Below are positions 1 to 48,836 of a DNA stretch of 64,000 bases, one piece after another; within the stretch, counting starts at the first letter, position 1, and each line of letters begins with the position of its first letter. The notes beneath the pieces are model-generated. The model worked only from the letters and a program-made list of their open reading frames with translations. It was not told the origin of the DNA and did no database searches. The stretch is from Escherichia coli (GTDB lineage: Bacteria; Pseudomonadota; Gammaproteobacteria; Enterobacterales; Enterobacteriaceae). The stretch is taken from NCBI RefSeq assembly GCF_011045215.1, contig NZ_CP049201.1; one strand, written 5' to 3'. A program made the position numbers and the translations under genes.

Positions 1-147
1 GGCGTGGCCCGGGGCATCACGCTTCATACCGCGGTGAAGGACGACGACAGCGAGGTGGCCGGGATTATCCGCGCACTGCTTGCTGGTGAGGAAAACGCCA
101 GGCTGCGTGCAGCCCACTGGTTACATGAGAGGGGGCTGAAAGTATGA
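1..147 (+). CDS. 3' end of an upstream phage late-region ORF (partial, function unknown)
   Basis: Frame 1 is open from the window edge to TGA at 145-147, overlapping the ATG of the next gene (ATGA coupling). No family recognised from the 48 visible residues. Confidence 0.35.
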   Translation, partial: GVARGITLHTAVKDDDSEVAGIIRALLAGEENARLRAAHWLHERGLKV

Positions 148-521
148 AGCTGATTCTGCCTTTTCCACCCAGCGTGAACACCTACTGGCGACACCCCAAC
201 AAAGGGGCATTTGCTGGTAAGAGCCTGATAAGCGCGGCGGGGCGAAAATTCCAGAGTGCGGCGTGCACAGCAATAGTTGAGCAGTTACGTCGTCTGCCGA
301 AACCAACGTCGGCACCTGCTTCAGTGGAGATCGTGTTGTTTCCTCCGGATAACCGGATCCGCGATCTGGACAACTATAACAAGGCGCTGTTTGACGCCCT
401 GACCCACGCGGGTGTGTGGGAAGACGACAGCCAGGTGAAAAGAATGCTGGTGGAGTGGGGACCGGTTATCCCGGAAACGGATGTTGCGGGTTGTTGTTCT
501 GCGGGTTCTGTTCTTCGTTGA
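144..521 (+). CDS. RusA-family Holliday-junction resolvase-like protein
   Basis: 125-aa ORF with motifs LPFPPSVNTYWRH and RIRDLDNYNKALFDALTHAGVWEDDSQV, matching the RusA signature ([41 protein letters not shown]) including the acidic catalytic residues. Confidence 0.6.
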   Translation: MKLILPFPPSVNTYWRHPNKGAFAGKSLISAAGRKFQSAACTAIVEQLRRLPKPTSAPASVEIVLFPPDNRIRDLDNYNKALFDALTHAGVWEDDSQVKRMLVEWGPVIPETDVAGCCSAGSVLR

Positions 522-689
522 CATGAGGTTGCCCCGTATTCAGTTTCGCTGATTTGTATTGTCTGAAGTTGTTTTTACGTTAAGTTGATGCAGATCAATT
601 AATACGATACCTGCGTCATAATTGATTATTTGACGTGGTTTGATGGCGTAGATGCACGTTGTGACATGTAGATGATAATTATTATCATT

Positions 690-905
690 TTGCGGGTCCT
701 TTCCGGCGATCCGACATGTTACGGGGCGGCGACCTCGCGGGTTTTCGCTATTTATGAAAATTTTCCGGTTTAAGGCGTTTCCGTTCTTCTTCGTCGTAAC
801 TTAATGTTTTTATTTAAAATACCCCCTGAAAAGAAAGGAAACGACAGGTGCTGAAAGCGAGCTTTTTGGCCTCTGTCGTTTCCTTTCTCTGTTTTTGGCC
901 GTGGA
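690..905 (+). other. Lambda-type cos site (cosQ-cosN-cosB); cosN 12-nt cohesive-end sequence GGGCGGCGACCT at about 724-735
   Basis: ...gggtcctttccggcgatccgacatgttacg/gggcggcgacctcgcgggttttcgctatttatgaaaattttccggtttaaggcgtttccg... is near-identical to the joined right and left ends of phage lambda as I recall them, and sits immediately upstream of Nu1. Confidence 0.85.
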
Positions 906-912
906 ATGAACA

Positions 913-1458
913 ATGGAAGTCAACAAAAAGCAGCTGGCTGACATTTTCGGTGCGAGTATCCGTACCATTCAGAACTGGCAGGAACAGGGAATGCCCGTTC
1001 TGCGAGGCGGTGGCAAGGGTAATGAGGTGCTTTATGACTCTGCCGCCGTCATAAAATGGTATGCCGAAAGGGATGCTGAAATTGAGAACGAAAAGCTGCG
1101 CCGGGAGGTTGAAGAACTGCGGCAGGCCAGCGAGACAGATCTCCAGCCAGGGACTATTGAGTACGAACGCCATCGACTTACGCGTGCGCAGGCCGACGCA
1201 CAGGAGCTGAAAAATGCCAGAGACTCCGCTGAAGTGGTGGAAACCGCATTCTGTACTTTCGTGCTGTCGCGGATCGCAGGTGAAATTGCCAGTATTCTCG
1301 ACGGGATCCCCCTGTCGGTGCAGCGGCGTTTTCCGGAACTGGAAAACCGACATGTTGATTTCCTGAAACGGGATATCATCAAAGCCATGAACAAAGCAGC
1401 CGCGCTGGATGAACTGATACCGGGGTTGCTGAGTGAATATATCGAACAGTCAGGTTAA
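913..1458 (+). CDS. nohD: Phage terminase small subunit Nu1 (DNA-packaging protein)
   Basis: 181-aa product MEVNKKQLADIFGASIRTIQNWQEQGMPVLRGGGKGNEVLYDSAAVIKWY... is essentially identical to lambda Nu1; its 3' end overlaps the start of gene A as in lambda. Confidence 0.95.
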   Translation: MEVNKKQLADIFGASIRTIQNWQEQGMPVLRGGGKGNEVLYDSAAVIKWYAERDAEIENEKLRREVEELRQASETDLQPGTIEYERHRLTRAQADAQELKNARDSAEVVETAFCTFVLSRIAGEIASILDGIPLSVQRRFPELENRHVDFLKRDIIKAMNKAAALDELIPGLLSEYIEQSG

Positions 1459-2452
1459 CAGGCTGCGGCATTTTGTCCGCGCCGGGCTTCGCTCACTGTT
1501 CAGGCCGGAGCCACAGACCGCCGTTGAATGGGCGGATGCCAATTACTATCTCCCAAAAGAATCCGCATACCAGGAAGGGCGCTGGGAAACACTGCCCTTT
1601 CAGAGGGCCATCATGAATGCGATGGGCAGTGACTACATCCGCGAGGTGAATGTGGTGAAGTCTGCCCGTGTTGGTTATTCCAAAATGCTGCTGGGTGTTT
1701 ATGCCTACTTCATAGAGCATAAGCAGCGCAATACCCTTATCTGGTTGCCGACGGATGGTGATGCCGAGAACTTTATGAAAACCCACGTTGAGCCGACTAT
1801 TCGTGATATTCCGTCGCTGCTGGCGCTGGCCCCGTGGTATGGCAAAAAGCACCGGGATAACACGCTCACCATGAAGCGTTTCACCAATGGGCGTGGCTTC
1901 TGGTGCCTGGGCGGTAAAGCGGCAAAAAACTACCGTGAAAAGTCAGTGGATGTGGCGGGTTATGATGAACTTGCTGCCTTTGATGAGGATATTGAACAGG
2001 AAGGCTCTCCGACGTTCCTGGGCGATAAGCGTATTGAAGGCTCGGTCTGGCCAAAGTCCATCCGTGGCTCCACGCCCAAAGTGAGAGGCACCTGCCAGAT
2101 TGAGCGTGCAGCCAGTGAATCCCCGCATTTTATGCGTTTTCATGTTGCCTGCCCGCATTGCGGGGAGGAGCAGTATCTTAAATTTGGCGACAAAGAGACG
2201 CCGTTTGGCCTCAAATGGACGCCGGATGACCCCTCCAGCGTGTTTTATCTCTGCGAGCATAATGCCTGCGTCATCCGCCAGCAGGAGCTGGACTTTACTG
2301 ATGCCCGTTATATCTGCGAAAAGACCGGGATCTGGAGGGGAATACCAACATCGCCGGTGTCACGGTGGTGTTCCGGGCAGGTGAACAGGAGCAGACACCG
2401 CCGGAGGGATTTGAATCCTCCGGATCCGAGACGGTGCTGGGTACGGAAGTGA
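1433..2452 (+). pseudogene. Terminase large subunit (lambda gpA) N-terminal ~300 codons, truncated; A-like sequence ends near 2335 and the ORF runs on out of frame to 2452
   Basis: MNISNSQVNRLRHFVRAGLRSLFRPEPQTAVEWADANYYLPKESAYQEGRWETLPFQRAIMNAMGSDYIREV...CEKTGIW matches lambda gpA, then continues as unrelated residues RGIPTSPVSRW... gpA is ~640 aa in lambda. Confidence 0.85.
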
Positions 2453-2823
2453 AATACGACACGCCGATCACCCGGACCATCACGTCTGCAAACATCGACC
2501 GTCTGCGCTTTACCTTCGGTGTGCAGGCACTGGTGGAAACCACCTCAAAGGGGGACCGGAATCCATCGGAAGTCCGCCTGCTGGTTCAGATACAACGTAA
2601 CGGTGGCTGGGTGACGGAAAAAGACATCACCATTAAGGGCAAAACCACCTCGCAGTATCTGACCTCGGTGGTGGTGGGTAACCTGCCGCCGCGCCCGTTT
2701 AATATCCGGATGCGCAGGATGACGCCGGACAGCACCACAGACCAGCTGCAGAACAAAACGCTCTGGTCGTCATACACCGAAATCATCGATGTGAAACAGT
2801 GCTACCTTCTGCCCGTAAGGTGA
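2338..2823 (+). pseudogene. Internal fragment (~160 codons) of lambda-like tail-tip/host-specificity gene J, with no N-terminus or C-terminus
   Basis: Translation ...VVFRAGEQEQTPPEGFESSGSETVLGTEVKYDTPITRTITSANIDRLRFTFGVQALVETTSKGDRNPSEVRLLVQIQRNGGWVTEKDITIKGKTTSQY...IIDVKQCY matches the middle of lambda J. It is in a different frame from the truncated A and ends in unrelated sequence. Confidence 0.8.
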
Positions 2824-4004
2824 ATGGTAAGGCGCTTTCAGCGGATATAACACTGACGCCGAAAGATATTGGTACGCTTAACTCAACAACAATGTCATTC
2901 AGCGGTGGTGCTGGTTGGTTCAAATTAGCAACGGTAACCATGCCACAGGCGAGTTCTGTTGTTTCAATTACGTTGATTGGTGGAGCTGGATTTAACGTGG
3001 GGTCACCTCAACAGGCAGGTATATCTGAACTTGTTTTGCGTGCAGGTAATGGTAATCCGAAGGGGATTACTGGTGCTTTATGGCAGCGCACATCGACAGG
3101 GTTTACAAATTTTGCCTGGGTCAATACATCTGGTGATACTTACGATATTTACGTTGCAATCGGAAATTATGCGACTGGTGTAAATATTCAATGGGATTAT
3201 ACCAGTAATGCCAGCGTGACGATTCATACGTCACCAGCATATTCTGCTAATAAGCCGGAAGGGTTAACGGACGGTACAGTTTATTCACTCTATACGCCAT
3301 CAGAACAGTTTTATCCGCCTGGCGCACCAATCCCGTGGCCATCAGATACCGTTCCGTCTGGCTATGCCCTGATGCAGGGGCAGACTTTTGACAAATCTGC
3401 CTACCCGAAACTTGCAGTCGCTTATCCGTCAGGCGTGATCCCTGATATGCGTGGCTGGACGATTAAGGGCAAGCCCGCCAGTGGTCGTGCCGTATTGTCT
3501 CAGGAACAGGACGGCATTAAATCGCATACCCACAGCGCCAGCGCATCCAGTACGGATTTGGGTACGAAAACCACATCGTCGTTTGATTACGGAACCAAAT
3601 CCACGAATAACACCGGGGCGCATACCCATAGTATTAGCGGGACTGCAAATAGTGCCGGTGCGCACCAACACAAGAGTTCCGGTGCATTTGGTGGCACGAA
3701 CACGAGCATTTTTCCTAATGGTTATACTGCGATTTCAAATCCAAGCGCGGGGATTATGAGCACAACAAGCGGTACTGGCCAGACTCGTAATGCAGGGAAG
3801 ACATCATCAGATGGTGCTCATACCCACTCACTGTCCGGCACTGCTGCAAGCGCAGGTGCACACGCACATACTGTCGGTATTGGTGCTCATACGCACTCCG
3901 TTGCGATTGGTTCACATGGACACACCATCACCGTTAACGCTGCTGGTAACGCGGAAAACACCGTCAAAAACATCGCATTTAACTATATTGTGAGGCTTGC
4001 ATAA
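2799..4004 (+). CDS. Side tail fibre protein, C-terminal receptor-binding portion with His-box repeats (probably a 5'-truncated remnant using an internal GTG)
   Basis: 401-aa ORF with repeated GAHTHS/GAHQH/GAHAHT/GSHGHT motifs and a C-terminal ...[22 protein letters not shown] typical of lambdoid Stf and T4 gp37-like fibre tips. Its stop overlaps the tfa start (TAATGG). The N-terminal tail-attachment region expected for Stf is absent. Confidence 0.65.
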
Positions 4005-4585
4005 TGGCATTCAGAATGAGTGAACAACCACGGACCATAAAAATTTATAATCTGCTGGCCGGAACTAATGAATTTATTGGTGAAGGTGACGCATATATTC
4101 CACCTCATACAGGTCTGCCAGCAAACAGTACCGATATTGCACCGCCAGATATTCCGGCAGGCTTCGTGGCTGTTTTCAACAGTGATGAGGCATCGTGGCA
4201 TCTTGTTGAAGACCATCGGGGTAAAACGGTTTATGACGTGGCTTCCGGCGACGCGTTATTTATTTCTGAACTCGGCTTATTACCGGAAAATGTCACCTGG
4301 TTATCCCCGGAAGGGGAGTTTCAGAAGTGGAACGGCACAGCCTGGGTGAAAGATGCAGAAGCAGAAAAACTGTTCCGGATCCGGGAGGCGGAAGAAACAA
4401 AAAACAACCTGATGCAGGTAGCCAGTGAGCATATTGCGCCACTTCAGGATGCTGTAGATCTGGAAATCGCAACGGAGGAAGAAAACTCGTTGCTGGAAGC
4501 CTGGAAGAAGTATCGGGTGTTGCTGAACCGTGTTGATACATCAACTGCACCTGATATTGAGTGGCCTGTAATACCAGAAGTTTAA
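4004..4585 (+). CDS. Tail fibre assembly protein (Tfa)
   Basis: 193-aa ORF translationally coupled to stf; the C-terminus ...[49 protein letters not shown] is the conserved Tfa motif. Confidence 0.85.
4431..4543 (+). repeat. Direct repeat copy 1: 3' segment of tfa (about 88% identical to 8260-8373)
   Basis: atattgcgccacttcaggatgctgtagatctggaaatcgcaacggaggaagaaaactcgttgctggaagcctggaagaagtatcgggtg... is nearly repeated at 8260-8373. Confidence 0.8.
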
Positions 4586-4589
4586 AATA

Positions 4590-4617
4590 AAAGCCCGCTT
4601 AAAATATCGCGGGCTTC
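4590..4617 (-). terminator. Hairpin (aaagcccgc...gcgggcttt) with a T-run on the minus strand; candidate terminator for the minus-strand catalase operon and possibly for tfa
   Basis: Inverted repeat aagcccgc / gcgggctt between convergent tfa and catalase genes; the minus-strand reading gives the stem followed by TTATTTTA. Confidence 0.5.
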
Positions 4618-4704
4618 GAAATATAAATGTATTTTCAGAGGCTAGAGCTTAGGATATCTCAGCGGCAATTAACTTATGAGGGATAGCTAAATACCAGAAG
4701 ATAA

Positions 4705-5595
4705 TTAGTTTTTACTATTTATCTTTGTTTGTGGTTCTCCTTCAGCAAGCTCAGCGCCAGTGACAGGATTGATGTCTTCATGGGATTTCAACCTTGTTGC
4801 CATAGCTTTTATCATAGCTTCTTGCTTGGTCGAAAGATTTATCGAGGCCTTCCCATCCCCACCGTCAACCGCTGGAACTGGATCGGAAATATAGTCAAAG
4901 TTTTCATCACTGTTCCAACTACCTCTGACGTCTTCACCTTCTGACATGTTGTAATATACGTTTTTGTATTTCTCAATTGGTGGTAATTTTCCTGGTGGAA
5001 AGGTGTTGCGAATTGAATGTAATGCTTTTTCAAATGAAAGCATGTGTGCTGCTTCCCTGGTCATTAAAAATGCCAGAGTGTCTTTTACTCCAGGATCATC
5101 AGTAACATTAATGAGACGTTCGTAAATGATCTTTGCCCGAGCTTCAGCTGCAATATTTGAACGAAGATCGGCCGTGACTTCGCCAATAGTATCAACATAA
5201 GCTGCAGTCCAGGGTACTCCAGCTGAATTAGTTAATGCTGGGCCTCCTCCGTAGAGGAGAGAAGTTATATGGCTGTCATTGCCATTTTGAGTTAAGGAAC
5301 GGTAAAGCTCAGCTTCATTCTCAGTTCCTTCAGCAAGTGCTCCTTTTGCACCTTTGTTGAGCATACCAACAAGAGAACCAATAATTTCGAGATGACTTAG
5401 TTCTTCTGTTGCTATGTCCATCAGCATATCCCTTCGGCCTGCATCTTCATCACTTAAGCCTTGAGTGAAGTATCGGCATGCTGCTGCAAGCTCACCCTGT
5501 GGCCCGCCGAATTGTTCTAAAAGTAGATTAGCCAAGCCTGGGTTTGGCTCACTTACACGTACTGTATATTGAAGTTTTTTCACGTGTCTAAACAT
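4705..5595 (-). CDS. Manganese (non-haem) catalase, KatN-like
   Basis: 296-aa product with ferritin-like Mn-catalase architecture (…EELSHLEIIGSLV…, …TREAAHMLSFEKAL…). It is last in a yciG-yciF-yciE-catalase gene order, as in the Salmonella yciGFE-katN operon. Confidence 0.8.
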   Translation of the reverse strand: MFRHVKKLQYTVRVSEPNPGLANLLLEQFGGPQGELAAACRYFTQGLSDEDAGRRDMLMDIATEELSHLEIIGSLVGMLNKGAKGALAEGTENEAELYRSLTQNGNDSHITSLLYGGGPALTNSAGVPWTAAYVDTIGEVTADLRSNIAAEARAKIIYERLINVTDDPGVKDTLAFLMTREAAHMLSFEKALHSIRNTFPPGKLPPIEKYKNVYYNMSEGEDVRGSWNSDENFDYISDPVPAVDGGDGKASINLSTKQEAMIKAMATRLKSHEDINPVTGAELAEGEPQTKINSKN

Positions 5596-5613
5596 AATGC
5601 CTCCTCAAAAGAA

Positions 5614-6120
5614 TTATTTTTTGGCTTCAACTCCATCAATTTCAGATCTGACCATGAATTGCTCAGTGGTGTCAGGAATATGGTTAAGAAGCCATTCAGC
5701 CATTTGTTTTTCTTCATTAAGAATTGCTTCAATAATGGGTACTGAAGCTGTATCACCCGCATTTTTGGCTGCTGCGAGAAGAGATGTGTAGCACGCAATT
5801 TCAAATTGTTCGAAAACATAGCCACTGATCGAACCTTTGACAATTTCATCAGATGGAAAAATTCCACCAATGGATTGCCCAAACGCGGCCATTTTACTCA
5901 TAGAGTCTTTAATGACAGAGCGCGAAATATTATTACGATCAAGTATGCTTTCAAGCTGTGAAAGCTGGTTCTTTGTTTCGCTAATGTGCTGCTCAATTCT
6001 GGAACGTAACTCTGGATAGTTTTCTATCCGGCTGGCCATAGACTCAAGCATTTTTTCAGCTTGTTTCTCCATCGCATGTGCATCACGAAGCCAGTCATGG
6101 TAATGTTCAATTCTATTCAT
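5614..6120 (-). CDS. YciE-like ferritin-like/DUF892 stress protein
   Basis: 168-aa product MNRIEHYHDWLRDAHAMEKQAEKMLESMASRIENYPELR... closely resembles E. coli YciE. Confidence 0.85.
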   Translation of the reverse strand: MNRIEHYHDWLRDAHAMEKQAEKMLESMASRIENYPELRSRIEQHISETKNQLSQLESILDRNNISRSVIKDSMSKMAAFGQSIGGIFPSDEIVKGSISGYVFEQFEIACYTSLLAAAKNAGDTASVPIIEAILNEEKQMAEWLLNHIPDTTEQFMVRSEIDGVEAKK

Positions 6121-6156
6121 AATCTGTTTATCCTAAAAGAAATTGAAGTCTATAGT

Positions 6157-6663
6157 TCAGGAGTTATCCTGAGCTTTTTTATTAACGTTATTAAATGCCA
6201 GGTCTGTTAATTTGACATCAGTAGCTTTTTCCTCTTCCAGTGTTTCTTTCAGGAGTTTAGCCGCTTTTTTATATCCTAATTGCTCAGCGAGTGTTACCAA
6301 AGTGCCATAACTGGCAATTTCATAGTGCTCTACTTTTTGTGCTGCAGCAATCAATGCAGCATCACGTACTTCATTTTTATCAGTGCTTTCAATTACCTCA
6401 TTCGCCTCTTCGATAAGTCCTTCCATTGCGGCACACTTAATTCTTTTCAATTTAAGACCATCTTCAGAATCAACAATCTGATCGATGCGTTCAATTTGAC
6501 CATGTGTCTCATCAAGATGTGACTGAAAAGCAGCGGTTAATTTATCACTATATGCAGAGCGACTAAGTTTAGACAGTGCCTTTGTTAGTTGTTTCTCAGC
6601 GCTGTATGTATCCGATAATAAGTGGATGAAGATATCTTCAACAGATTTAATTTGCATAATCAC
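6157..6663 (-). CDS. YciF-like DUF892 stress protein
   Basis: 168-aa product ...VEDIFIHLLSDTYSAEKQLTKAL...EVRDAALIAAAQKVEHYEIASYGTL... closely resembles E. coli YciF. Confidence 0.85.
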   Translation of the reverse strand: MIMQIKSVEDIFIHLLSDTYSAEKQLTKALSKLSRSAYSDKLTAAFQSHLDETHGQIERIDQIVDSEDGLKLKRIKCAAMEGLIEEANEVIESTDKNEVRDAALIAAAQKVEHYEIASYGTLVTLAEQLGYKKAAKLLKETLEEEKATDVKLTDLAFNNVNKKAQDNS

Positions 6664-6735
6664 TCCAGAGTTTTCACTGCGAGCCCGTAGGCTCGCAGTT
6701 AGCTTCAGTTATTCACGAATGTAGGGGATGATAAA

Positions 6736-6918
6736 TTAAGAGTCAGATTTACGGCCGCCACCATGGCTATTCTGACCACCTTTTTTCCCTGCTTCTGATG
6801 CTCTTTGTGGATCGTTTTTAAAATTACCGCCACTATGTTGGCCGCCTTTACGACCAGCGTCAGAAGCTTTTTGTCGATCTTCAGCGAAATTACCTGCACC
6901 GCCACGATGTTCGGTCAT
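6736..6918 (-). CDS. YciG-like KGG-repeat general stress protein
   Basis: 60-aa product MTEHRGGAGNFAEDRQKASDAGRKGGQHSGGNFKNDPQRASEAGKKGGQ... with KGG repeats, resembling YciG/YmdF; first gene of the four-gene minus-strand operon. Confidence 0.8.
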   Translation of the reverse strand: MTEHRGGAGNFAEDRQKASDAGRKGGQHSGGNFKNDPQRASEAGKKGGQNSHGGGRKSDS

Positions 6919-7422: not shown

Positions 7423-8091
7423 CTATTTTTTCCCTGAAGCGGAAAACATTACTACAGTACCTTGAACCTTGGTTTTAACATTCTCGAAATGCTCTGAGAG
7501 TATATGTGTTAAGCCTTCTTCGGAATCTCTTGTGTTTGAAAAGATGCCTTTCTGATTGTAAATGCGCATCAGTTTTTGACCGAAGCGATTGTGCACAATT
7601 CCATCGCCAAGAATTGTGGCTCCGTATAGAGTTCCATCGCCAGTTAAGGCCTGCGCCGCATTGCGTATTACACAGCTTTTTGTAGATATATTTCCAGGCA
7701 GGCAGTGAAGAAGGTAAAACATGGAAATGGAATCAAATTGACCATGTAACGCCGCGGGATAAGGTTCAAAAACATCATGGCTAATTTTATGTTTAATTTT
7801 TGATTCCCCAGCCCTTGTAGATGCCGCGTTCAGGCTAGCTTCGTTCAAATCCATTAAAGATATCAGACTACTCTCAGGTACGTGAGTAAGGTAAAACCCA
7901 GTTCCAACACCAATATCCAGATGGTTGTTACCTAAATGTTCCAGAAAGTGTGGAAGAAGGTGTTCCTTTGTAGGACATCCCCATGCAAGCCGATTTGATA
8001 CTCCCAAAACCCACCAGTCATAAAGCTTTAGGGTAAGTGGTGTGTAAATTTTAGCCCCATCATCTGTGTTTTTTTTCATTAATTTCACCAT
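7423..8091 (-). CDS. ybcY: Class I SAM-dependent methyltransferase (YbcY-like), apparently intact
   Basis: 222-aa ORF with the SAM-binding motif LDIGVGTGFY and a Rossmann-type methyltransferase layout. It occupies the ybcY position of DLP12, between the tfa copies. Confidence 0.7.
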   Translation of the reverse strand: MVKLMKKNTDDGAKIYTPLTLKLYDWWVLGVSNRLAWGCPTKEHLLPHFLEHLGNNHLDIGVGTGFYLTHVPESSLISLMDLNEASLNAASTRAGESKIKHKISHDVFEPYPAALHGQFDSISMFYLLHCLPGNISTKSCVIRNAAQALTGDGTLYGATILGDGIVHNRFGQKLMRIYNQKGIFSNTRDSEEGLTHILSEHFENVKTKVQGTVVMFSASGKK

Positions 8092-8147: not shown

Positions 8148-8453
8148 ATGCTGCCGCAGCATGGCGATATTGAAATAGCCTGGTATGCTTCAATACAGCA
8201 GGAGCCGAATGGCTGGAAGACCGTCACCACACAGTTCTACATCCAGGAATTCAGTGAGTATATTGCGCCACTGCAGGATGCTGTAGATCTGGAAATCGCA
8301 ACGGAGGAAGAAAGATCGTTGCTGGAGGCATGGAATAAATATCGGGTATTGTTGAATCGTGTTGATACATCAGTAGCTCTGGGTATGAAGCTGTTTGTAA
8401 CTCATGTTACAGTAACAGCCATTACTATCTCGAAGGTGCAAAATGTATATTGA
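8148..8453 (+). pseudogene. tfaX: Tail fibre assembly gene remnant (tfaX-like), carrying only part of the Tfa C-terminal domain
   Basis: 101-aa ORF with ...[38 protein letters not shown]... but no Tfa N-terminal half, and a divergent C-terminal tail. Confidence 0.7.
8260..8373 (+). repeat. Direct repeat copy 2: tfa 3' segment (pairs with 4431-4543)
   Basis: tattgcgccactgcaggatgctgtagatctggaaatcgcaacggaggaagaaagatcgttgctggaggcatggaataaatatcgggta... Confidence 0.8.
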
Positions 8454-13609: not shown

Positions 13610-16582
13610 TTACCAGTGCACTCCAATGGTGAGAAACGCGTTGTTGCGCTCTCCGTTACGTTGATTAATCGCCTTAAAGGTATGTTGATACTCGACGCCG
13701 AGACTGACTTTGTGCGGCCAGGCGTCGTAGTGCGTCTCGCCGGTCCAGATATTCCAGCGGACCCCGACACCGCCAAGCTGCGCGCCCTGAGTGCCTTTAT
13801 CACGATAGCCGTTGTCCTGAACGTGAGCGTAAGGCTCAATAGTCTGTCCGTTAGCTACCTTCTGATGCCAGCTGACGCGATAATCTGCCGTCCACGCCTG
13901 AATATCCTGGCGGATATATTGCGCCGCATCGAGGTACAGGTTTTGGGCAAACCAGCCTGAACCGCTCGGGTGCCATTCGTCGCTGTATTTGCCGCCATTA
14001 AAGAATGAGGCGCTGGCGCGCAGCATGGTATCGGATGCGCCATTTTGCCCGTTCAGCGGCAACTGCTGTTCGACGGCGAGGAAAAAGATCTGATCGCGCA
14101 GCGGCTTCCAGCGTAGACCGGTGCCGGACATCGGATTTTTCACCGGCATCATCACCCCGTTTTCTCCGGTATCGGCAAAGACGCGGCTATAAACTGAAAG
14201 CAGGTCGCCTTCCAGCAGCATATTTCGTCCGATGCGGTATTCGGCTTCCAGTTGCCCGTAGCTACGATAGCTTTTCCCTGGCGCTGCGCCGCCGACATTA
14301 TTGTTAGCGGTACTCATTGCGCCGGAACGCAAGCCGATGGAAGAATCGAAACTGAACGTCCAGCGGCGACCGACCTCCTCATGCAAACGGCGGAAATTGA
14401 AGCGTTGCTGATTTTGTTCTGGCGTCAATGGGGTTATCAGCGCCTGATTATCAATGTCATCAATCACCAGCCGGGCGTAGTGCTGCGTCGCAGGCATGTC
14501 ATCCAGACGCTGGTTCACGTAGGCCAGTTGTCGGATCAGTGCCGGATCGTCCGGAAGCCCTTTTTGCGCCTGTTCGAGCATTTCCCGCGACTGTGCGATA
14601 TCACCGCTATCCCACAAGGCGTAACCAAGCGCTGCCTGGATGTTGCTATTATTCGGTTCCAGTTCCAGCGCGGCGCGCAAATCACTCACCGCGGCCGGGA
14701 CATTATGACGTTGGCGATAAATTGTCGCCCGCGCAACGTAAGCGTTGGCAGAAGGCGCAATATTGATTGAGCGCGTGAGATCGTTCAGTGCGAGTTCCGG
14801 CTGACCAGGAATGTAACGTTGCGCATGCAGCCACCAGTAGAGGGCATTGCTTCCCAGTCCACGTTGTTCTGCCTGTTGTAGCCAGCGATCGCGAGCCGCA
14901 CCATTTCCTGCCGCCTGGGCGGTATTGGCAGCAGCAAGCAGATCCTCATTGCTCATGTCGTGAAGACTGATTTTCTGCCAGGCCGCCAGTGCGGTGGCGT
15001 AGTCCTCAACCTGATACGCCTGATAGGCTACCGCACGATGTTGCCAGGCGTTCGGTTGTCGTTGTTCGGCCTGAAGCCATGCATACAACGCCACACCGGG
15101 TAGCGTGTCCCGATAACACTTTGCCAGACGGTTCCAGGCGGCGGCATCGTAGGAAGGCGACATATCGCCCAGCAAGCGAACTATTGCCGGGCAATTATCT
15201 GCAATACCCGGCAACTGACTTTGCCACTGACGTTGCTCCGCCAGCGGTAAGGGTTTCGATAAAATCGCCACCTTCGCCGGCGTTGCCAGGTAAGGATGAC
15301 TTTCCAGCAGAGACGCCAGTCGCGCCATTAAAGTCTGGCTGATACGCGCATCGCCCTGGAAAGGATAGCGTTGCAGCAATAAATCGGCAGCTTCCCGTGA
15401 CTGCTCGTTCTGCATCAGTTGCCAGGTTAGTTGATCCAGGCGGGTAAGATTTGCCGGTTCTTGCTGATACAGCAAGCGTGCCAGACGCAGAGCTTCAGCC
15501 TTGTTACGGGTCGCCACGCTGACAGCATAACGCTCCTCAAGCATTTCATTGGCGGGGAGGGTGGCGAGCAGTTTTTGCGCTGCGTCGTACTGACCTTCTT
15601 TTAACAGCACCGGTAGCGTCGCGCCAACAACATACTGGCGGTTATCGGCAAACTGCACCGTATAATTCGCCAATGCCTGAACGGGGTTGGCGCTGTATTT
15701 AGATAACAGATAGAGCCAACTTTTCTCTTGTGCGTCCGTGGTAAACAGCGGCTTATTTTCAATGAGATAATGCTGGAGGCGTGCTTTTTCGCCACGATAA
15801 GCCAGCGCGGTCGCGTAAGTAATATATGACTGAGGATCGGTGAAGATCCCCTGTGATTGCAGTGCCAGGATCCGATCGTCCAGCTGCCCGGCAAGAAGCA
15901 CGTCAAACCACTGACGGCGTTCTGCCGCGCTTAATGTGTTCTGCTGGCGTGCTTCATTGTATAGCGTATCTGCCTGGGACCATTGTTTCAGGTAGATTGC
16001 CCGTTGCAGCAGATCGGTTCGCAGCGTTTTTCCTTCCGGCGATGCAGCAAACGTCGCATCGTTCAGTTGCGCTCTGGCGACAGGTAACTGTGCCAGCCGC
16101 AGGGCATTCTGCCCGACTTCACTGCGACAACGCAGGGTCGGCGCAGCATCGCACGCTTTTTGCTGGGCAAGCAGTTCTTCAACAGTTGTAATGCTTTTCA
16201 CTTCAACCGGAATAGCCGCCAGACTGCGCTCAAGTCGGGCATCTCCTGGGTGACGTTTCAGTTGATCCTCAAGCAACAGCCGCGCCCGGTCATCATGACC
16301 AAAATGGCGATAGGCTTCCGCAAGGTATAAAGTCAGCGGAATATTATCCGGCACCTGCTGGTGTATATATTCAAATTCGCGGATGGCGGTTGCTTCGTCG
16401 TTATTTTTCTGTGCCTTCAGCGCCTTATCGAGACGGGGATAAATAACAAAATGGCGATAATCGCTCAGCCCCAGCTCTTCTGCGCTGGTGCCGATATTGT
16501 CTGCGAGTGCGCTGGTACTCAATAAAGACGTCAGCAGTAAACCAGACCATCCGATGACGCGATTAAGGTTATTCTCCTTCAT
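13610..16582 (-). CDS. nfrA: Bacteriophage N4 adsorption protein A (outer-membrane TPR protein)
   Basis: 990-aa product from MKENNLNRVIGWSGLLLTSLLSTSALA (the ORF track has an in-frame 7-codon upstream extension); TPR-rich with a C-terminal beta-barrel-like region. Confidence 0.9.
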   Translation of the reverse strand: MKENNLNRVIGWSGLLLTSLLSTSALADNIGTSAEELGLSDYRHFVIYPRLDKALKAQKNNDEATAIREFEYIHQQVPDNIPLTLYLAEAYRHFGHDDRARLLLEDQLKRHPGDARLERSLAAIPVEVKSITTVEELLAQQKACDAAPTLRCRSEVGQNALRLAQLPVARAQLNDATFAASPEGKTLRTDLLQRAIYLKQWSQADTLYNEARQQNTLSAAERRQWFDVLLAGQLDDRILALQSQGIFTDPQSYITYATALAYRGEKARLQHYLIENKPLFTTDAQEKSWLYLLSKYSANPVQALANYTVQFADNRQYVVGATLPVLLKEGQYDAAQKLLATLPANEMLEERYAVSVATRNKAEALRLARLLYQQEPANLTRLDQLTWQLMQNEQSREAADLLLQRYPFQGDARISQTLMARLASLLESHPYLATPAKVAILSKPLPLAEQRQWQSQLPGIADNCPAIVRLLGDMSPSYDAAAWNRLAKCYRDTLPGVALYAWLQAEQRQPNAWQHRAVAYQAYQVEDYATALAAWQKISLHDMSNEDLLAAANTAQAAGNGAARDRWLQQAEQRGLGSNALYWWLHAQRYIPGQPELALNDLTRSINIAPSANAYVARATIYRQRHNVPAAVSDLRAALELEPNNSNIQAALGYALWDSGDIAQSREMLEQAQKGLPDDPALIRQLAYVNQRLDDMPATQHYARLVIDDIDNQALITPLTPEQNQQRFNFRRLHEEVGRRWTFSFDSSIGLRSGAMSTANNNVGGAAPGKSYRSYGQLEAEYRIGRNMLLEGDLLSVYSRVFADTGENGVMMPVKNPMSGTGLRWKPLRDQIFFLAVEQQLPLNGQNGASDTMLRASASFFNGGKYSDEWHPSGSGWFAQNLYLDAAQYIRQDIQAWTADYRVSWHQKVANGQTIEPYAHVQDNGYRDKGTQGAQLGGVGVRWNIWTGETHYDAWPHKVSLGVEYQHTFKAINQRNGERNNAFLTIGVHW

Positions 16583-21227: not shown

Positions 21228-22610
21228 ATGTCTCCTTGTAAACTTCTGCCATTTTGTGTGGCCCTTGCGCTAACCGGTTGTTCACTGGCACCGGATTATC
21301 AGCGCCCGGCAATGCCCGTACCGCAGCAGTTCTCACTCAGCCAGAACGGCCTGGTTAACGCAGCAGATAACTATCAGAACGCGGGCTGGCGCACCTTTTT
21401 TGTTGATAATCAGGTGAAGACGCTGATTAGCGAGGCGCTGGAGAATAACCGGGATTTGCGCATGGCGACGCTGAAAGTGCAGGAGGCACGGGCGCAATAT
21501 CGTCTGACTGATGCCGACCGCTACCCACAGCTCAATGGTGAGGGCAGCGGCAGCTGGAGCGGCAATCTTAAAGGCGATTCAGCCACGACGCGGGAGTTTT
21601 CTACTGGCCTTAACGCCAGCTTTGACCTCGATTTTTTCGGGCGCTTAAAGAACATGAGCGAAGCCGAGCGACAAAATTATTTAGCCACTGAGGAAGCTCA
21701 GCGCGCGGTGCATATTCTGCTGGTTTCTAATGTCGCGCAAAGCTATTTCAATCAGCAGCTGGCGTATGCGCAATTGCAAATAGCCGAAGAAACGCTGCGT
21801 AATTATCAGCAGTCATATGCGTTTGTCGAAAAACAACTGTTGACAGGTAGCAGTAATGTTCTGGCGCTGGAACAGGCTCGCGGGGTGATTGAAAGTACCC
21901 GCAGCGACATCGCTAAACGTCAGGGGGAACTGGCGCAGGCGAATAATGCATTGCAACTGTTACTGGGAAGCTACGGCAAGCTGCCGCAAGCGCAGACAGT
22001 AAACAGCGACAGCCTGCAAAGCGTTAAATTACCGGCGGGCTTGTCGTCGCAAATCTTATTGCAGCGCCCGGATATTATGGAAGCTGAACACGCGTTAATG
22101 GCGGCTAATGCCAATATTGGTGCTGCACGTGCAGCATTTTTCCCGTCTATCAGCCTGACCAGCGGAATATCAACCGCCAGCAGCGATCTGTCGTCATTAT
22201 TTAACGCCAGCAGCGGGATGTGGAATTTTATTCCTAAAATTGAGATCCCCATTTTTAATGCCGGACGCAACCAGGCCAATCTGGATATCGCCGAAATTCG
22301 CCAGCAGCAGTCGGTGGTGAATTATGAACAGAAAATCCAGAACGCCTTTAAAGAAGTGGCAGATGCGCTGGCATTACGTCAAAGCCTGAACGATCAAATT
22401 AGCGCCCAGCAGCGTTATCTGGCGTCGCTGCAAATTACTTTGCAACGGGCGCGGGCATTATATCAGCACGGCGCGGTAAGTTATCTGGAAGTGCTGGATG
22501 CCGAGCGTTCTTTATTTGCAACCCGACAAACCTTACTTGACCTGAATTATGCCCGTCAGGTCAACGAAATTTCTTTATATACCGCACTTGGTGGCGGTTG
22601 GCAGCAATAA
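21228..22610 (+). CDS. cusC: Outer-membrane efflux channel CusC (TolC-like lipoprotein)
   Basis: Product MSPCKLLPFCVALALTGCSLAPDYQRP... with lipobox LTGC. Confidence 0.9.
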   Translation: MSPCKLLPFCVALALTGCSLAPDYQRPAMPVPQQFSLSQNGLVNAADNYQNAGWRTFFVDNQVKTLISEALENNRDLRMATLKVQEARAQYRLTDADRYPQLNGEGSGSWSGNLKGDSATTREFSTGLNASFDLDFFGRLKNMSEAERQNYLATEEAQRAVHILLVSNVAQSYFNQQLAYAQLQIAEETLRNYQQSYAFVEKQLLTGSSNVLALEQARGVIESTRSDIAKRQGELAQANNALQLLLGSYGKLPQAQTVNSDSLQSVKLPAGLSSQILLQRPDIMEAEHALMAANANIGAARAAFFPSISLTSGISTASSDLSSLFNASSGMWNFIPKIEIPIFNAGRNQANLDIAEIRQQQSVVNYEQKIQNAFKEVADALALRQSLNDQISAQQRYLASLQITLQRARALYQHGAVSYLEVLDAERSLFATRQTLLDLNYARQVNEISLYTALGGGWQQ

Positions 22611-28905: not shown

Positions 28906-30201
<1,296 letters not shown>

Positions 30202-30260
30202 TTATGCAAATCAGGAGAATCTGAGGGGAAATAGCCGGGCAGATGCCCGGCAAGAGAGAA

Positions 30261-30914
30261 TTACACTTCGGTTAAGGTGATGTTTTGCGGCAGACGAGAT
30301 TTCGGCAGCGTAGCGTTAAAATCTTCAACGCTGTGATGACCTACCGGAACAACCACCAGACTGGTGTAGCCTTTCTCTTTCAGACCAAATTCTGCATCGA
30401 GGATGGCGGCGTCAAAACCTTCGATGGGTACCGCGTCCAGACCCAGAGCCGCCACGCCGAGCAGGAAGTTACCGACGTTGAGATAAACCTGTTTTGCCAT
30501 CCACTCTGCATCATCATGCAGATCTTTACGGTGCATATCGGCGAAGAACTTGCGACCTTTATCGTTCGCGGCTTTCGCTTCCGGCGTGGCAAAGCGGCCA
30601 TCAGCATCTTCCTGGTCAACAACCAGCTTCAGCCAGGCATCGTCCATCGCGGTTTTTGCACAGAACACCACGACGTGCGAGGCATCAAGTATTTTACGTT
30701 CGTTGAACACATAATTACCGGCAGCGGATTTGGCAACACGCGCTTTACCTTCTTCCGTGCTGGCAACAATAAAATGCCACGGCTGGGAGTTGGTGCTGGA
30801 TGGGCTGTATTGCAGGAGAGTTTTGATCTGCTCGGCCTGTTCCGGGGTAAGTTTTTTGCTGGCATCAAATGCCTTAGTGGAATGACGCTTTAAGGCGACA
30901 GAAATGATATCCAT
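30261..30914 (-). CDS. nfsB: Oxygen-insensitive NAD(P)H nitroreductase NfsB
   Basis: 217-aa product from [53 protein letters not shown]... Confidence 0.95.
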
Positions 30915-31007
30915 AAAGACTCCATGTGAAAGTAATTTTGCGTGCCAGCAGATTACAAGGTTCAACGAGAAATGGTAAGCGAGAAAAATGCGCTATAGAT
31001 TTCCGCT

Positions 31008-31376
31008 TTAGCCTGGACGCACTCTTTTTTGATCGCGTTTAGCCAGACCATCAACCACCAGATTCCACGAATCGTTGATCAGATCGCGAAGTAACGCTTC
31101 GGAGATTTCCTCGCCGGGATACACCGAAATCCAGTGCTTTTTATTCATGTGATACCCTGGCTTAATGCTTGGGTATATTTGCTGATTTAACAGGGATTTT
31201 TGTGGATCGGACTTCAGATTGATAAAGGGGACGCCGCGTATCTCCGACGACAGCATAAAAATCTTGCCGCCAATTTTAAAAACATCGAACTCCGGGCCAA
31301 AAGGCCAGCAAAGCTCGACAAAGGGTAACTCAAGGGCCAGGCGTTTCGCCGTTTCGTGCAGTGATTGCTTATCCAT
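31008..31376 (-). CDS. ybdF: YbdF (DUF419-family protein)
   Basis: 122-aa product [55 protein letters not shown]... Confidence 0.85.
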
Positions 31377-31440
31377 AAACGTTCCTTTAGGCGAAGGAGA
31401 ATAAGCAAAGTATGCCGCGAAGTACGGCGATAATCGACGT

Positions 31441-31689
31441 TTAATCCGCCAGCGAGAACCAGCGTCGCCAGATAAAGCGCAGAACAAAATACTCAATAGC
31501 GCCCAGCACTAAAAACCACAGACAAAACAATAAAGTGTAAAGCTGACTAAGATCCATCAGATGGAACGTGGTCACCAGTTTTTGTGCCAGCGTAAGCCCC
31601 AGTGCGGGGGCGGGCAGCAGCAGGCAAGAGAGGAAAGCCATCAGCAAAATGCCTGCTGCGGTGGTCAAGGTTTCTAAAGGGTGTTTCAT
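31441..31689 (-). CDS. ybdJ: Small inner-membrane protein YbdJ
   Basis: 82-aa product [72 protein letters not shown]... Confidence 0.85.
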
Positions 31690-31754
31690 AACATTGTTAA
31701 ATGTAAGTTAAAACACCATTGTCAGGGATATTCTTCTGTAAGGCAATTCCAGGC

Positions 31755-32882
<1,128 letters not shown>

Positions 32883-33322
32883 TTATGTTGGCGTTTTCTA
32901 TTCAGTATAGAAGTCGGAGCGGCTGGGCGAGATGCGGAAGTTCTGGAATGTTTCTTTTTTTGGTGATGGTGAACTGATGGTGCCTGAAGCAATTTGGCTA
33001 CTTTTGCAATGTGACAAGTTATGGCACGGCTGGCTGGTGGCGAAGAATTTTGACGATTGAGGCATGTAGAAAAAACGGGCTCAGCTTCAGTTGATTAAAT
33101 GAGGAGTGAGAAGTCCGAAACAGGATTTACTGTATAAATAAACAGCCATTTTGTTGAGGAAGGGTAAGATAACGGCGGGTGCCTGAAGCTTTCCGGTTTC
33201 AGGTTTACTCTGAGGTCTGGAAAGATGAAGCCCCAGGAGATATTTCTATCAACCCTGGGGCTGCCACTCCAAACCAGACAATTTGGATGGTAGTTCCTTC
33301 TTCGCATGGAGGCAATATAAAC

Positions 33323-33475
33323 ATGCTGACGAAATATGCTCTTGTGGCAGTCATAGTGCTGTGTTTGACGGTACTGGGATTTACGCTTCTGGTCGGAGAC
33401 TCGCTGTGTGAGTTTACGGTGAAGGAACGTAATATTGAGTTCAGGGCTGTTCTCGCTTACGAACCGAAGAAGTAG
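33323..33475 (+). CDS. hokE: Hok-family type I toxin HokE (small membrane peptide)
   Basis: 50-aa product [50 protein letters not shown]; an in-frame upstream-extended ORF (33179-33475) is consistent with a mok-like leader frame. Confidence 0.85.
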
Positions 33476-33596
33476 CCGTTGTGCGGGGAGTAATCCCCGC
33501 ATATCCGGTTGTCAGGTCAGGATGGTAAGGCACCTGCTTTACACTTTCGCCCGCGGTCAGTGATGGCTGCGGGCGAATCGTACCAGATGTTGTCAA

Positions 33597-34226
33597 TTAA
33601 TCGTGTTGGCACAGAGTTATGACTATTTTTTCTTTTATCTGCCAGTGCACAGCAAACATCTCATTCTCACGATGAATGATGACCTGCTGTTTATTCCAGC
33701 TAATTATCTGATAGTCCAGAAAACCTGCATCAGTTTGGATCTCACTTGCCTTAAATGCGCTCTCTTTGGCGGAAAATGCCAGTGTCAGCGCCAGAGAAAA
33801 GGCTAAACCGCAGTCTGCGAGTCGCTCGTGTTCTGCTGGTGTAATAATGTTGTCTGTCAATTCGGTCGCTGTTTGCGCAGAAAAAATTTCTTCGATATCA
33901 ACGCCAATCGGTTGACGGGAAACCACGGCCAATGCCGTAGCCCCGCAGTGGCTAATACTGCCGTATACCTCCGCAGGCCACACCGGTTGGCGTAGCTCGC
34001 CGATTGTGGGCACACATTTATAGCCATATTCCCGCAAGGCATAAACAGCAGCGATCCGTCCGGCTAAATGCTCTGTTTTACGTTTACGTCCAGCGTGTTG
34101 CAGTTGTGCGTAGTGCGGCAGCCAGAGTAAATCCTGCTCACAAAAATTCGCCGGATCGAACTCAACAAAATGCAGCGTATGTCCGGCAAAGGGGAGGGAG
34201 GTATGCGTAGTTTTCATATCGACCAT
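33597..34226 (-). CDS. entD: Enterobactin synthase phosphopantetheinyl transferase EntD
   Basis: 209-aa product from MVDMKTTHTSLPFAGHTLHFVEFDPANFCEQDLLWLPHYAQLQHAGRKRKTEHLAGRIAAVYAL... Confidence 0.9.
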   Translation of the reverse strand: MVDMKTTHTSLPFAGHTLHFVEFDPANFCEQDLLWLPHYAQLQHAGRKRKTEHLAGRIAAVYALREYGYKCVPTIGELRQPVWPAEVYGSISHCGATALAVVSRQPIGVDIEEIFSAQTATELTDNIITPAEHERLADCGLAFSLALTLAFSAKESAFKASEIQTDAGFLDYQIISWNKQQVIIHRENEMFAVHWQIKEKIVITLCQHD

Positions 34227-34249
34227 ATTCGAGACTGATGACAAACGCA

Positions 34250-34355
34250 AAACTGCCTGATGCGCTACGCTTATCAGGCCTACATGGTCCTGCAATATAT
34301 TGAATTGGCAAGATTTTTGTAGGCCGGATAAGGCGTTCACGCCGCATCCGGCATG
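34250..34355. repeat. REP/BIME palindromic elements between entD and fepA
   Basis: gcctgatgcgctacgcttatcaggcctaca and tgtaggccggataaggcgttcacgccgcatccggca are canonical E. coli REP units. Confidence 0.85.
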
Positions 34356-34391
34356 AACGACGCGCACTTTGTCAACAATCTGACGTTAGCA

Positions 34392-36632: not shown

Positions 36633-36798
36633 TGTTTTATTCCTGCATTTTTGCCACGAATTGCAACTGTCGGGCATGGTCGTCATCAACACGACGCATC
36701 CCGCTACCGCGAAAACCTTTGATCCTGAAAGACACGCAGTGCAGTTGGTTAATTAATGTCCGCGCTTCCCACGGCGCGCCATTACGCTATTGCAAATG

Positions 36799-36827
36799 CA
36801 AATAGTTATCAATAATATTATCAATAT
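36799..36827. promoter_or_regulatory. Fur box(es) in the divergent fepA / fes-ybdZ-entF promoter region
   Basis: aatagttatcaataatattatcaatat resembles the Fur consensus GATAATGATAATCATTATC. Confidence 0.7.
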
Positions 36828-36874
36828 ATTTCTGCAATCAATGAAAAATTGCACAGTAAACATGGGGTTATGGT

Positions 36875-38077: not shown

Positions 38078-38079
38078 AT

Positions 38080-38298
38080 ATGGCATTCAGTAATCCCTTC
38101 GATGATCCACAGGGAGTGTTTTACATTTTGCGCAATGCGCAGGGGCAATTCAGTCTGTGGCCGCAACAATGCGCCTTACCGGCAGGCTGGGACATTGTGT
38201 GTCAGCCGCAGTCACAAGAGTCCTGCCAGCAGTGGCTTGAAGCCCACTGGCGTACTCTGACACCGGCGAATTTCACCCAGTTGCAGGAGGCACAATGA
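38080..38298 (+). CDS. ybdZ: MbtH-like protein YbdZ (NRPS adenylation-domain partner)
   Basis: 72-aa product MAFSNPFDDPQGVFYILRNAQGQFSLWPQQCALPAGWDIVCQPQSQESCQQWLEAHW...; overlaps the fes stop and the entF start. Confidence 0.9.
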   Translation: MAFSNPFDDPQGVFYILRNAQGQFSLWPQQCALPAGWDIVCQPQSQESCQQWLEAHWRTLTPANFTQLQEAQ

Positions 38299-42176: not shown

Positions 42177-42193
42177 ATTAACATTATCTATAA

Positions 42194-42232
42194 ACCCATA
42201 ATTGCAGGAAATAATTATGGGTTTATCATTTA
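42194..42232 (+). terminator. Rho-independent terminator candidate after entF
   Basis: Stem aaacccataatt / aattatgggttt followed by a T-rich tract. Confidence 0.6.
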
Positions 42233-42391
42233 TATAATTTATAAGTTTGCTGGTTCTTTTTCTTAAATAGAGTGAATGTTGCATTCAGTGGAATGAATTT
42301 ACAAACTTCAGCTTCGGATAATTCTCACCAGCTGGTAAAGTGAGCGCCGTGGAGATTTCCCCCTATTGGACTCATTTTCAGGTTATACCCC

Positions 42392-46327: not shown

Positions 46328-46339
46328 ACGAACTTCCAT

Positions 46340-46368
46340 GATAATGAAATTAATTATCGTTATCGATC
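46340..46368. promoter_or_regulatory. Fur box in the divergent fepDGC / entS promoter region
   Basis: gataatgaaattaattatcgttatcgat immediately upstream of the fepD start. Confidence 0.7.
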
Positions 46369-46437
46369 TTATTTGGATATGTTAGCATGTGCAGCCTAAG
46401 AATAGGTATTTAAAATATTTGATGGCAAGGCATTGTA

Positions 46438-47688: not shown

Positions 47689-47691
47689 TGC

Positions 47692-48809: not shown

Positions 48810-48836
48810 AGCCTTTATCATTTTGTGGAGGATGAT

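Follow-up and report, generated by a model that had tools for sequence, protein, structure and literature searches.

We analysed a 64,000-nucleotide stretch of Escherichia coli DNA (contig NZ_CP049201.1; hereafter the window), which carries near its left end the remnant of a lambda-type prophage late operon. Comparison of window 1-5000 with phage lambda (NC_001416) by BLASTN gave three relevant blocks. The first, window 724-2336, corresponds to lambda 1-1614 at 98.5% identity and contains cos, the whole of nu1 and codons 1 to 301 of the terminase gene A. The second, window 2335-2806, corresponds to nt 15670-16141 of the tail-tip gene J at 96.6% identity, and the third, window 3314-4568, matches the side-tail-fibre genes stf and tfa (lambda 21238-22537) piecewise at 80 to 93%. 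The junction between the J and stf pieces ends at the same stf base as at least 11 other independent prophage deletions, and this recurrent endpoint is the main subject of this analysis.

All pieces of the remnant lie on the plus strand. About 245 bp left of cosN align with the right end of lambda, cosQ region included; in an alignment to the prophage-form lambda record, this right-end homologue and the 12-nt cohesive end GGGCGGCGACCT span 478 to 735. The cosN sequence itself (GGGCGGCGACCT) lies at 724-735, and lambda nt 1, the first base of the left cohesive end, is window 724. The small terminase subunit gene nu1 (nohD-like; 913 to 1458) is 98.5% identical to lambda and full length, with a product of 181 aa that covers positions 1-164 of the 164 in the Pfam model Phage_Nu1 (E 4e-101). 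The large subunit is represented by A' (1433 to 2336), codons 1-301, with the ATPase domain only, as assigned by BLASTN and Pfam GpA_ATPase. At junction 1, which reads GGGATCTG[GA]GGGGAATACC in the base-level alignment, A and J share the dinucleotide GA (2335-2336), equivalent both to lambda A nt 1613-1614 and to J nt 15670-15671. The deletion amounts to about 14.06 kb in lambda coordinates, from A codon 301 to J codon 56. Since the A frame (phase of 1433) differs from the J frame (phase of 2335), the A frame runs beyond codon 301 through 38 unrelated codons of J DNA to a stop at 2450-2452. The resulting open reading frame (ORF), 1433-2452, contains GpA_ATPase (PF05876) only, at residues 47-285 (E 2e-51). 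The C-terminal endonuclease and prohead-binding half of A (lambda codons ~302-641) is absent, the homology ending at nt 1614, and no continuation of A or J was found elsewhere in the 64-kb window.

The J piece, J' (2335 to 2806; BLASTN and Pfam), comprises 157 codons (lambda nt 15670-16141), residues ~56-212, out of about 1132; full-length J is absent. Junction 2 reads CAGTGC[TACC]TTCTGCCCG, also given as CAGTGC[TACC]TTCTGCCCGTAAGG. Its TACC, at 2803-2806 in the base-level alignment, is common to J, ending at nt 16141, and to intact stf (GGGTACCTTCTGCCCG, encoding V-P-S-A-R); this is the recurrent endpoint GGG-TA|CCTTCTGCCCGTAAGG. From 2803 on, the sequence is 97 to 99% identical to intact stf genes, and stf' (2805 to 4004) retains the C-terminal ~400 codons of the side tail fibre, with a collar domain and His-rich fibre repeats (Pfam Collar and Phage_fiber). 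The GTG at 2799 is an accidental start made by the junction; it opens a 401-codon ORF (2799-4004) in which Pfam finds the collar domain and side-tail-fibre repeats. The prophage tail fiber N-terminal domain (MAVKISG...) is missing from stf', the DNA upstream being J in another frame; intact stf genes have 250 to 600 codons upstream of the site. Judged by the gene coordinates of locus L005, junction 2 represents an estimated loss of about 5.3 kb, from J codon 212 to mid-stf. Thereafter, tfa (4004 to 4585), encoding the tail-fibre assembly protein, is intact, with 193 aa, a Pfam Caudo_TAP match and 93% identity to lambda tfa. Within its coding sequence, 4347-4545 matches the Rfam family IS009 (RF02111) at 227.6 bits, and this family appears to have been modelled on tfa DNA. 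No RNA family was found by Rfam at the junctions. The reading frames of A, J and stf all differ, and every fusion is out of frame.

A first-pass annotation of the window had proposed a deletion scar in which gpA stops near 2335 and is followed by J in another frame, and the base-level match at 2335-2336 and the differing frames bear this out. It had placed the J fragment in the middle of the gene; the fragment is indeed an internal piece, but residues ~56-212 of 1132 belong to the N-terminal region and not to the middle. The second breakpoint that it put near 2815 exists and joins J to the C-terminal part of stf, but lies at 2803-2806. The lambda alignment it had suggested, as a way of placing both breakpoints and looking for microhomology, yielded GA at junction 1 and TACC at junction 2. 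We also considered that the J-like segment could be a free-standing small gene, either a moron or a domesticated domain. A 152-codon ORF (2365-2823) does span the segment and encodes a complete FNIII-A domain of J, and nothing else according to Pfam. Nevertheless, its GTG start is internal to J, its stop (2821-2823) lies out of frame inside stf sequence, and homology to inner lambda J, at 96.6% DNA identity, is lost abruptly at both ends. The arrangement is found in no complete E. coli genome, and no conserved homologues of about 150 aa, equipped with a promoter and RBS of their own, were seen. A free-standing gene is therefore scarcely credible here, and the segment is better described, as in the first-pass annotation, as a fragment of J with a single internal domain.

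Two features went beyond that annotation, namely the recurrent, base-precise stf breakpoint and a third scar at the left of the remnant. In the latter, rusA' (144 to 476; RusA family in Pfam) has its 3' end swapped at ~476, via GGAA(A), for DNA whose usual place is about 245 bp left of cos. A perfect Chi sequence, GCTGGTGG, is located at 446-453, 23 nt left of the rusA junction and oriented to stop RecBCD arriving from the right. At the same locus, strain Res13-Lact-PEB17-18 carries a lambda-like prophage that appears complete, with argU/intD at one end and stfR-tfa at the other, and is followed by the same cargo genes, ompT and envY. This prophage has, in lambda order, all the genes missing from the window, and against it the window shows three internal gaps (rusA'|pre-cos, A'|J' and J'|stf'). 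Window 1-476 is 100% identical to positions 14344-14819 of the relative (L008rc), in which the next matching base is 21962; the rusA' gap thus amounts to about 7.1 kb, with Q, a porin gene, the lysis genes, bor and ybcV/W gone.

Taken together, these data very probably reflect the decay of a lambda-like prophage by two deletions, RecA independent and at microhomology, one of which used the recurrent stf endpoint. In deletion 1, A nt 1614 would have been joined to J nt 15670 via GA, with the removal of about 14 kb that held W, B, C, Nu3, D, E, FI, FII, Z, U, V, G, T, H, M, L, K, I as well as the 5' end of J. In deletion 2, J nt 16141 would have been joined via TACC to mid-stf, at the cost of lom, the remainder of J and the 5' portion of stf. 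The microhomologies (GA at junction 1, TACC at junction 2 and GGAA(A) at rusA) fall within the 2 to 10 nt expected of such deletions and have no longer flanking homology. As had been proposed at first pass, the genes between A and J are missing: everything from A codon 301 to J codon 56 is gone and is present in the complete relative. The same annotation's view of the element as defective in packaging and morphogenesis, with cos, Nu1 and fibre parts retained, fits an A' reduced to its ATPase, a lone J domain and out-of-frame pieces beside an intact cosN, cosQ region, nu1 and tfa and a remaining stf'. Because A', J' and stf' are pseudogene fragments in three frames, the element is able neither to package DNA nor to build virions. 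The deletion scar itself is ordinary prophage decay at the DLP12 locus.

Neither the A|J nor the J|stf junction of the window occurs in any of 5,426 complete E. coli genomes. Since repeats among prophages are a classic source of mis-joins and the exact junctions are unique to the window, an assembly chimera was also weighed. However, junctions of the same class, at the same stf base, are present in independently finished genomes (FORC_081 and 10 others, BR1220 and B-1109), both window junctions have the microhomology typical of real deletions, and long collinear homology extends on each side. We regard a chimera as having next to no likelihood.

To describe the stf endpoint, IMG/VR was scanned with the 27-mer directly right of the junction, and metagenome contigs were scanned likewise. 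The 27-mer is present in 52 IMG/VR contigs. In 44 of them an intact stf lies upstream (...AATGCGAATGGTCGGGTACC), and the remaining 8 are independent contigs with unrelated upstream sequence, which in every case (8/8) runs up to the same base and ends in TACC. With strains BR1220, B-1109 and FORC_081 and the window itself, this gives 12 events, in which 12 different upstream partners abut the same base at the TA of GGG-TA-CCTTCTGCCCG in stf. FORC_081 and ten other complete genomes have A nt 1759 joined to stf at the base used by the J|stf junction here; in BR1220, a deletion within stf that breaks the reading frame stops at this base; and the complete genome of B-1109 adds one further partner. 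In complete E. coli genomes, the right side of the site was counted at 1,483 places and the intact 300-bp span in 1,391 records, both figures being counts only; the stf of O157:H7 matches this allele at 99 to 100%. All 17 metagenome contigs with the 27-mer were intact, a metagenome scan filtered against the intact upstream base found nothing, and two scans of contigs from species-representative genomes were likewise empty. No prior description of the stf breakpoint was found in the literature searched.

The partners are varied. Three are late genes of the lambda type, namely terminase A (the FORC_081 type), J near its N terminus (this window) and J near its C terminus. Two are different positions of a ParB-like (ynaK-type) gene in two Rac-like prophages, and one is stf itself. 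In a lambda-type prophage the partner lies on the int/xis side; another partner site follows directly on bor, and another comes after a small-terminase-like ORF, where the fusion happens to be in frame. At the ompW locus the partner is a Nu1-like small-terminase gene of a prophage, and in a P2-like prophage the join falls 12 nt beyond the capsid gene. The last is a sequence with no assigned gene, in whose place one tally of the twelve has Nu1. In every event the downstream stf' and tfa are kept to the base, and the upstream loss ranges from about 130 bp (an estimate from repeat spacing) to most of a prophage. At L040 9848-11821, an in-frame event at this site has produced a predicted 657-codon ORF in which about 259 codons of an upstream gene are fused to stf'. 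The partner genes do not resume downstream, indicating that the events are deletions and not insertions. A mobile cassette with a second conserved end was considered and rejected, as the right boundary of the shared block is the end of tfa (...DIEWP), which intact genes share too.

A shared endpoint might also be inherited from one ancient truncation. One junction is indeed shared by descent among L001, L009, L032 and 11 complete genomes. In contrast, the endpoint as a whole is met by 12 unrelated sequences at the same base, in lambda-att, DLP12, Rac-like, ompW-locus and P2-like prophages, and L014 and L018 represent two positions of one partner gene. Common descent is accordingly most improbable as an explanation of all 12. 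Flank replacement by homologous exchange is ruled out because the junction has no homology.

Several controls support the singularity of this position. With a marker placed 430 nt downstream of the site, 59 contigs were recovered, and only two other truncation breakpoints fell within those 430 nt, a Nu1|stf join at +139 and a join to another partner at +269; the probability of a pile-up of 8 events at one position is ~1e-17. Left-side probes, ending at the TA or 17 nt left of it, revealed no reciprocal (left-retained) event among 61 to 62 loci, all of which run into intact stf except for one homologous allele swap. A different stf site, used in the Qin relic of strain VE-V11-M (stf-y; L002), was intact in 64 of 64 viral contigs, and L002 is the sole rearranged copy known. 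The VE-V11-M junction has an 8-bp microhomology, GGGATACG, and is a plain microhomology deletion, which argues that the method does not manufacture hot spots.

The base of A used in FORC_081 recurs elsewhere. Lambda A nt 1759-1760 (L001 7782, L002 7783; GGGGATAC) is the left endpoint of two different deletions, one to the stf hot site in FORC_081 and one to the other stf site, CGGGATACG, in the VE-V11-M Qin relic. The double use probably arises because both stf sites resemble this A sequence. A second hot spot at A nt 1759 was considered and rejected: more than 120 contigs have either intact A or the FORC_081-type join, and L002 has the 8-bp microhomology, with an stf site similar to the hot site. 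At L275 ~3790, in the Qin locus of strain WP2-S18-ESBL-08, an independent A'|stf' relic joins A nt 2268 (GGTACGGATA) to a third stf position. As the scars of L275 and L002 differ, relics at the Qin locus have at least two different scars.

Next, the anatomy of the exchange was examined in the 7 events for which the undeleted partner sequence was recovered from other loci. These partners read GCTACC in J, GATACG in A, GCTAAC in stf, TCTATC in ynaK, GGTATC in the C-terminal part of J, GTTACC downstream of bor and AGTACC downstream of the P2-like capsid gene. TA stands at the crossover in all seven (P 4e-9), and they resemble GGTACC, with 17 matches at 28 flanking positions (P 7e-5); partners are also rich in G at the three positions preceding the TA (17/33, P 1e-3). 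Where partner and site differ, the product has the stf base right of the TA (4/4) and the partner base left of it (7/7), so that the exchange is confined to the central TA of GG-TA-CC, which is window 2803-2804. The hot site (L005 3984-4040, equivalent to window 2786-2842) belongs to a 27-nt direct repeat with a spacing of 30 nt (TAATGCGAATGGTCGGGTACCTTCTGC / TAAGGTGAATGGTAAGGCGCTTTCAGC), where it sits in the first copy, and to a small inverted repeat (CGGGTA-CCTTC-TGCCCG), where it lies close to the loop. The hot spot is accounted for by neither repeat.

A fixed right end, a 2-nt core, imperfect pairing of the flanks and loss on the upstream side only point to a stable end or 3' terminus. Most likely, in our reading of these features, a site-specific lesion is followed by joining. 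A break, nick or arrested 3' end would form at the TA or a few nucleotides to its left and would leave a stable right-hand end, which may then be joined or primed at an upstream GGTACC-like sequence by pairing at the central TA. Whether the TA of GGG-TA-CCTTCTGCCCG in this widespread stf/H module is the fixed end of a one-directional process of this sort, by cleavage and joining or by arrest and repriming, in lambda-like and P2-like elements alike, we judge to be evenly balanced. Chi-directed processing was rejected as a cause, there being no GCTGGTGG within 3 kb downstream of the site and none consistently upstream of the partners.

Since the site lies inside a fibre gene, it could be a quasi-site of the tail-fibre DNA invertases (Pin/Cin/Gin), which are encoded beside tfa in Rac, Qin and e14-type prophages and have their crossover sites inside fibre genes. 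In some carriers pinR or pinQ lies just past tfa, and the hot site reads GTACC-TT, like a left half-site plus core; in published invertase sites the left half closes with (A/T)TACC and the core next to it is TT or TC (PMC4134206, Table 3), and quasi-site recombination by Cin is cited in the same paper (PMC4134206). Nevertheless, the crossover falls at the TA, 2 nt left of the expected core, and where partners differ the products have stf bases between the TA and the TT (L001, L006, L014 and L015). The partner cores are CG, GG, CT and AC, none of them TT, the rest of the 26-bp consensus (AAACC NN GGTTT) is absent, and there is no inverted partner copy near pin. Moreover, most carriers, the window included, have no nearby pin gene, and no inversions were seen. 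A direct comparison with cix of the P1-like phage JL22 and with published sites likewise led us to reject a Din invertase site, as register and half-sites do not fit. An invertase origin is thus very unlikely.

Similarly, the hot site might be a cryptic cosN-like site, cut by a lambda-type terminase, with the end left by terminase or by fill-in then joined by microhomology. Terminase is described as protecting one side of the cos cut (PMC3945230). On the reverse strand, CCTTACG^GGCA resembles cos GTTACG^GGGC, and the 12-nt stagger would land on the left side of the TA, 1 nt away from it. Read in the direct orientation, GGTCGGGTACCT and the cohesive end GGGCGGCGACCT agree in 9 of 12 bases. These cosN-like features, 9/12 in one register and the 7-mer TTACGGG in the other, predict different ends, however, and there is no cosB. 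The match to a 28-nt cos probe (14/28) is within background, as the window reaches 17 to 18, and one event occurred in a P2-like prophage. Packaging from cos to a pseudo-site is excluded because many left endpoints lie right of cos. We therefore give a terminase cut little credence, no more than the invertase.

A third class of enzyme, either a host type II topoisomerase (gyrase) or a covalent nick-and-join enzyme (HUH relaxase/Rep-like or type IA topoisomerase), would cut at the site, become attached to the 5' end and leave a protein-capped right end whose 3' strand pairs at GGTACC-like sequences. This would accommodate the fixed end, the short shared core, the likeness of the partners to the fixed site and the one-sidedness, and Michel and Ehrlich reportedly described the same pattern in 1986 for deletions ending at the nick sites of rolling-circle origins. 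The sequence AAT^GGTC^GGG just left of the TA presumably fits the Lockshon-Morris gyrase consensus (T/G)^GRYC(T/G), and cleavage there would leave a 3' end ...GGTACCC, with which the G-rich left flank of the partners is suited to pair. The activity in unrelated prophage types further suggests a host or plasmid factor. On the other hand, a symmetric double-strand cut alone does not explain a polarity of 12 versus 0, and no oriT nick sequence is known to match the site. K-12, the strain in which gyrase cleavage was mapped (PMC6379681), probably lacks this stf allele. Such an enzyme is an unlikely candidate for the site-specific lesion, though less so than the invertase or the terminase.

Several points weigh against a lesion-driven hot spot and against its use in the window. 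The sample consists of isolate-derived viral contigs and a few complete genomes and is no exhaustive census. An earlier junction, and not an intact stf, may have been the starting point of some of the 12 deletions, which would even so count as separate uses of one endpoint. The one-sidedness could come partly from the larger dispensable target upstream and from selection against lethal late genes. As for the window, its junctions have no match in complete genomes and these events cannot be dated or ordered; the relic also has no direct parent, since the central stf allele of the complete relative differs.

Overall, the stf breakpoint is a recurrent, polar and base-precise endpoint in a common tail-fibre module and is statistically robust, indicating that prophages in E. 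coli degrade, at least in part, in a non-random way. One dinucleotide in the module collects independent deletions by which lethal and structural genes are lost and the receptor-binding end of the fibre and its chaperone are spared. Relics of the stf'/tfa kind are known to act as donors when host range is exchanged with infecting phages (PMC3945230). If a one-directional process does act at this TA, the A'|stf' and Nu1'|stf' architectures of E. coli cryptic prophages would stem largely from a specific activity of host, plasmid or phage and not from random decay. Should a defined enzyme or DNA structure prove responsible, prophage domestication and the persistence of stf'/tfa relics would become open to experiment, and the site would represent a new natural hot spot of illegitimate recombination in enterobacteria.

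Beyond tfa, window 4600-12000 matches E. coli genomes and contains a block of Mn-catalase and yciE/yciF/yciG-like genes, a methyltransferase, a tfa remnant, a hydrolase and ompT. The block (4705-6918, minus strand), between tfa and a ybcY-like gene, encodes a manganese catalase, two ferritin-like YciE/YciF paralogues and a YciG-like general stress protein; at coverage of at least 80% it occupies the same place in 334 of the 5,426 complete genomes, and K-12 DLP12 does not have it. The ybcY-like class I SAM methyltransferase gene (7423-8091) is intact, the K-12 ybcY being a pseudogene, and is followed by a second, older, tfaX-like remnant (8241-8372) that is 86 to 88% identical to tfa. The ompT-envY side is collinear with K-12 and Res13-Lact-PEB17-18, and the intD/argU end lies beyond the window. 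Judged by this context, the region is best read as a DLP12-type relic beside ompT with its own set of scars. Farther along, the core ent/fep region (30000-50000) reaches at most 98.8% identity to any of the 5,426 complete genomes and holds a multi-copy element, with a median of 37 matching places per genome. The host may thus belong to a lineage that this collection lacks, perhaps a Shigella or a divergent Escherichia.

Deletion hot spots with one fixed end are familiar from nicks at rolling-circle origins, from int-promoted lambda deletions at att and from adjacent deletions mediated by insertion sequences (IS). Like these, the stf site has one base-constant end, a variable other end, short similarity among partners and a single direction. 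It differs in having no origin, att core, IS end or recombinase gene at or beside it, and in lying inside a conserved coding module and being active in unrelated prophage families. With the sites of the Din family (cix, gix and pix) it shares a position in fibre genes at a module boundary, a 2-bp exchange and a half-site ending in TACC; however, its crossover is shifted by 2 nt, it has no 26-bp dyad, it gives deletions and not inversions, and it needs no nearby invertase.

At the level of the whole relic, the closest comparison is with K-12 DLP12 (nohD, aaaD pseudogene, tfaD, ybcY, tfaX, appY and ompT), which has the same neighbourhood, with ompT and envY downstream, and a cos-nu1 module 98.4% identical over window 473-1740. 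Both relics have a truncated lambda-type A joined to fibre DNA, a ybcY-like methyltransferase gene and a second tfa remnant. In K-12, A nt 1018 is joined straight to tfa nt 22119 (annotated aaaD/tfaD), whereas the window has A as far as nt 1614, then 472 bp of J and some 1.2 kb of stf; conversely, K-12 keeps quuD, nmpC, the lysis genes, bor and ybcV/W where the window has its rusA'|pre-cos scar. The relics of FORC_081, VE-V11-M and WP2-S18-ESBL-08 resemble that of the window in having an intact tfa and a truncated A that runs into the 3' part of stf. Their A endpoints (1759, 1759 and 2268, respectively, against 1614 in the window) differ, and they have no J fragment. The stf endpoint of FORC_081 is identical to that of the window, whereas the two Qin relics (VE-V11-M and WP2-S18-ESBL-08) end at other stf positions with ordinary microhomology. 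DLP12, Rac and Qin relics are described as exchanging nu1/A and stf/tfa DNA with lambda by homologous recombination (PMC3945230), and relics of this type thus remain genetically active.

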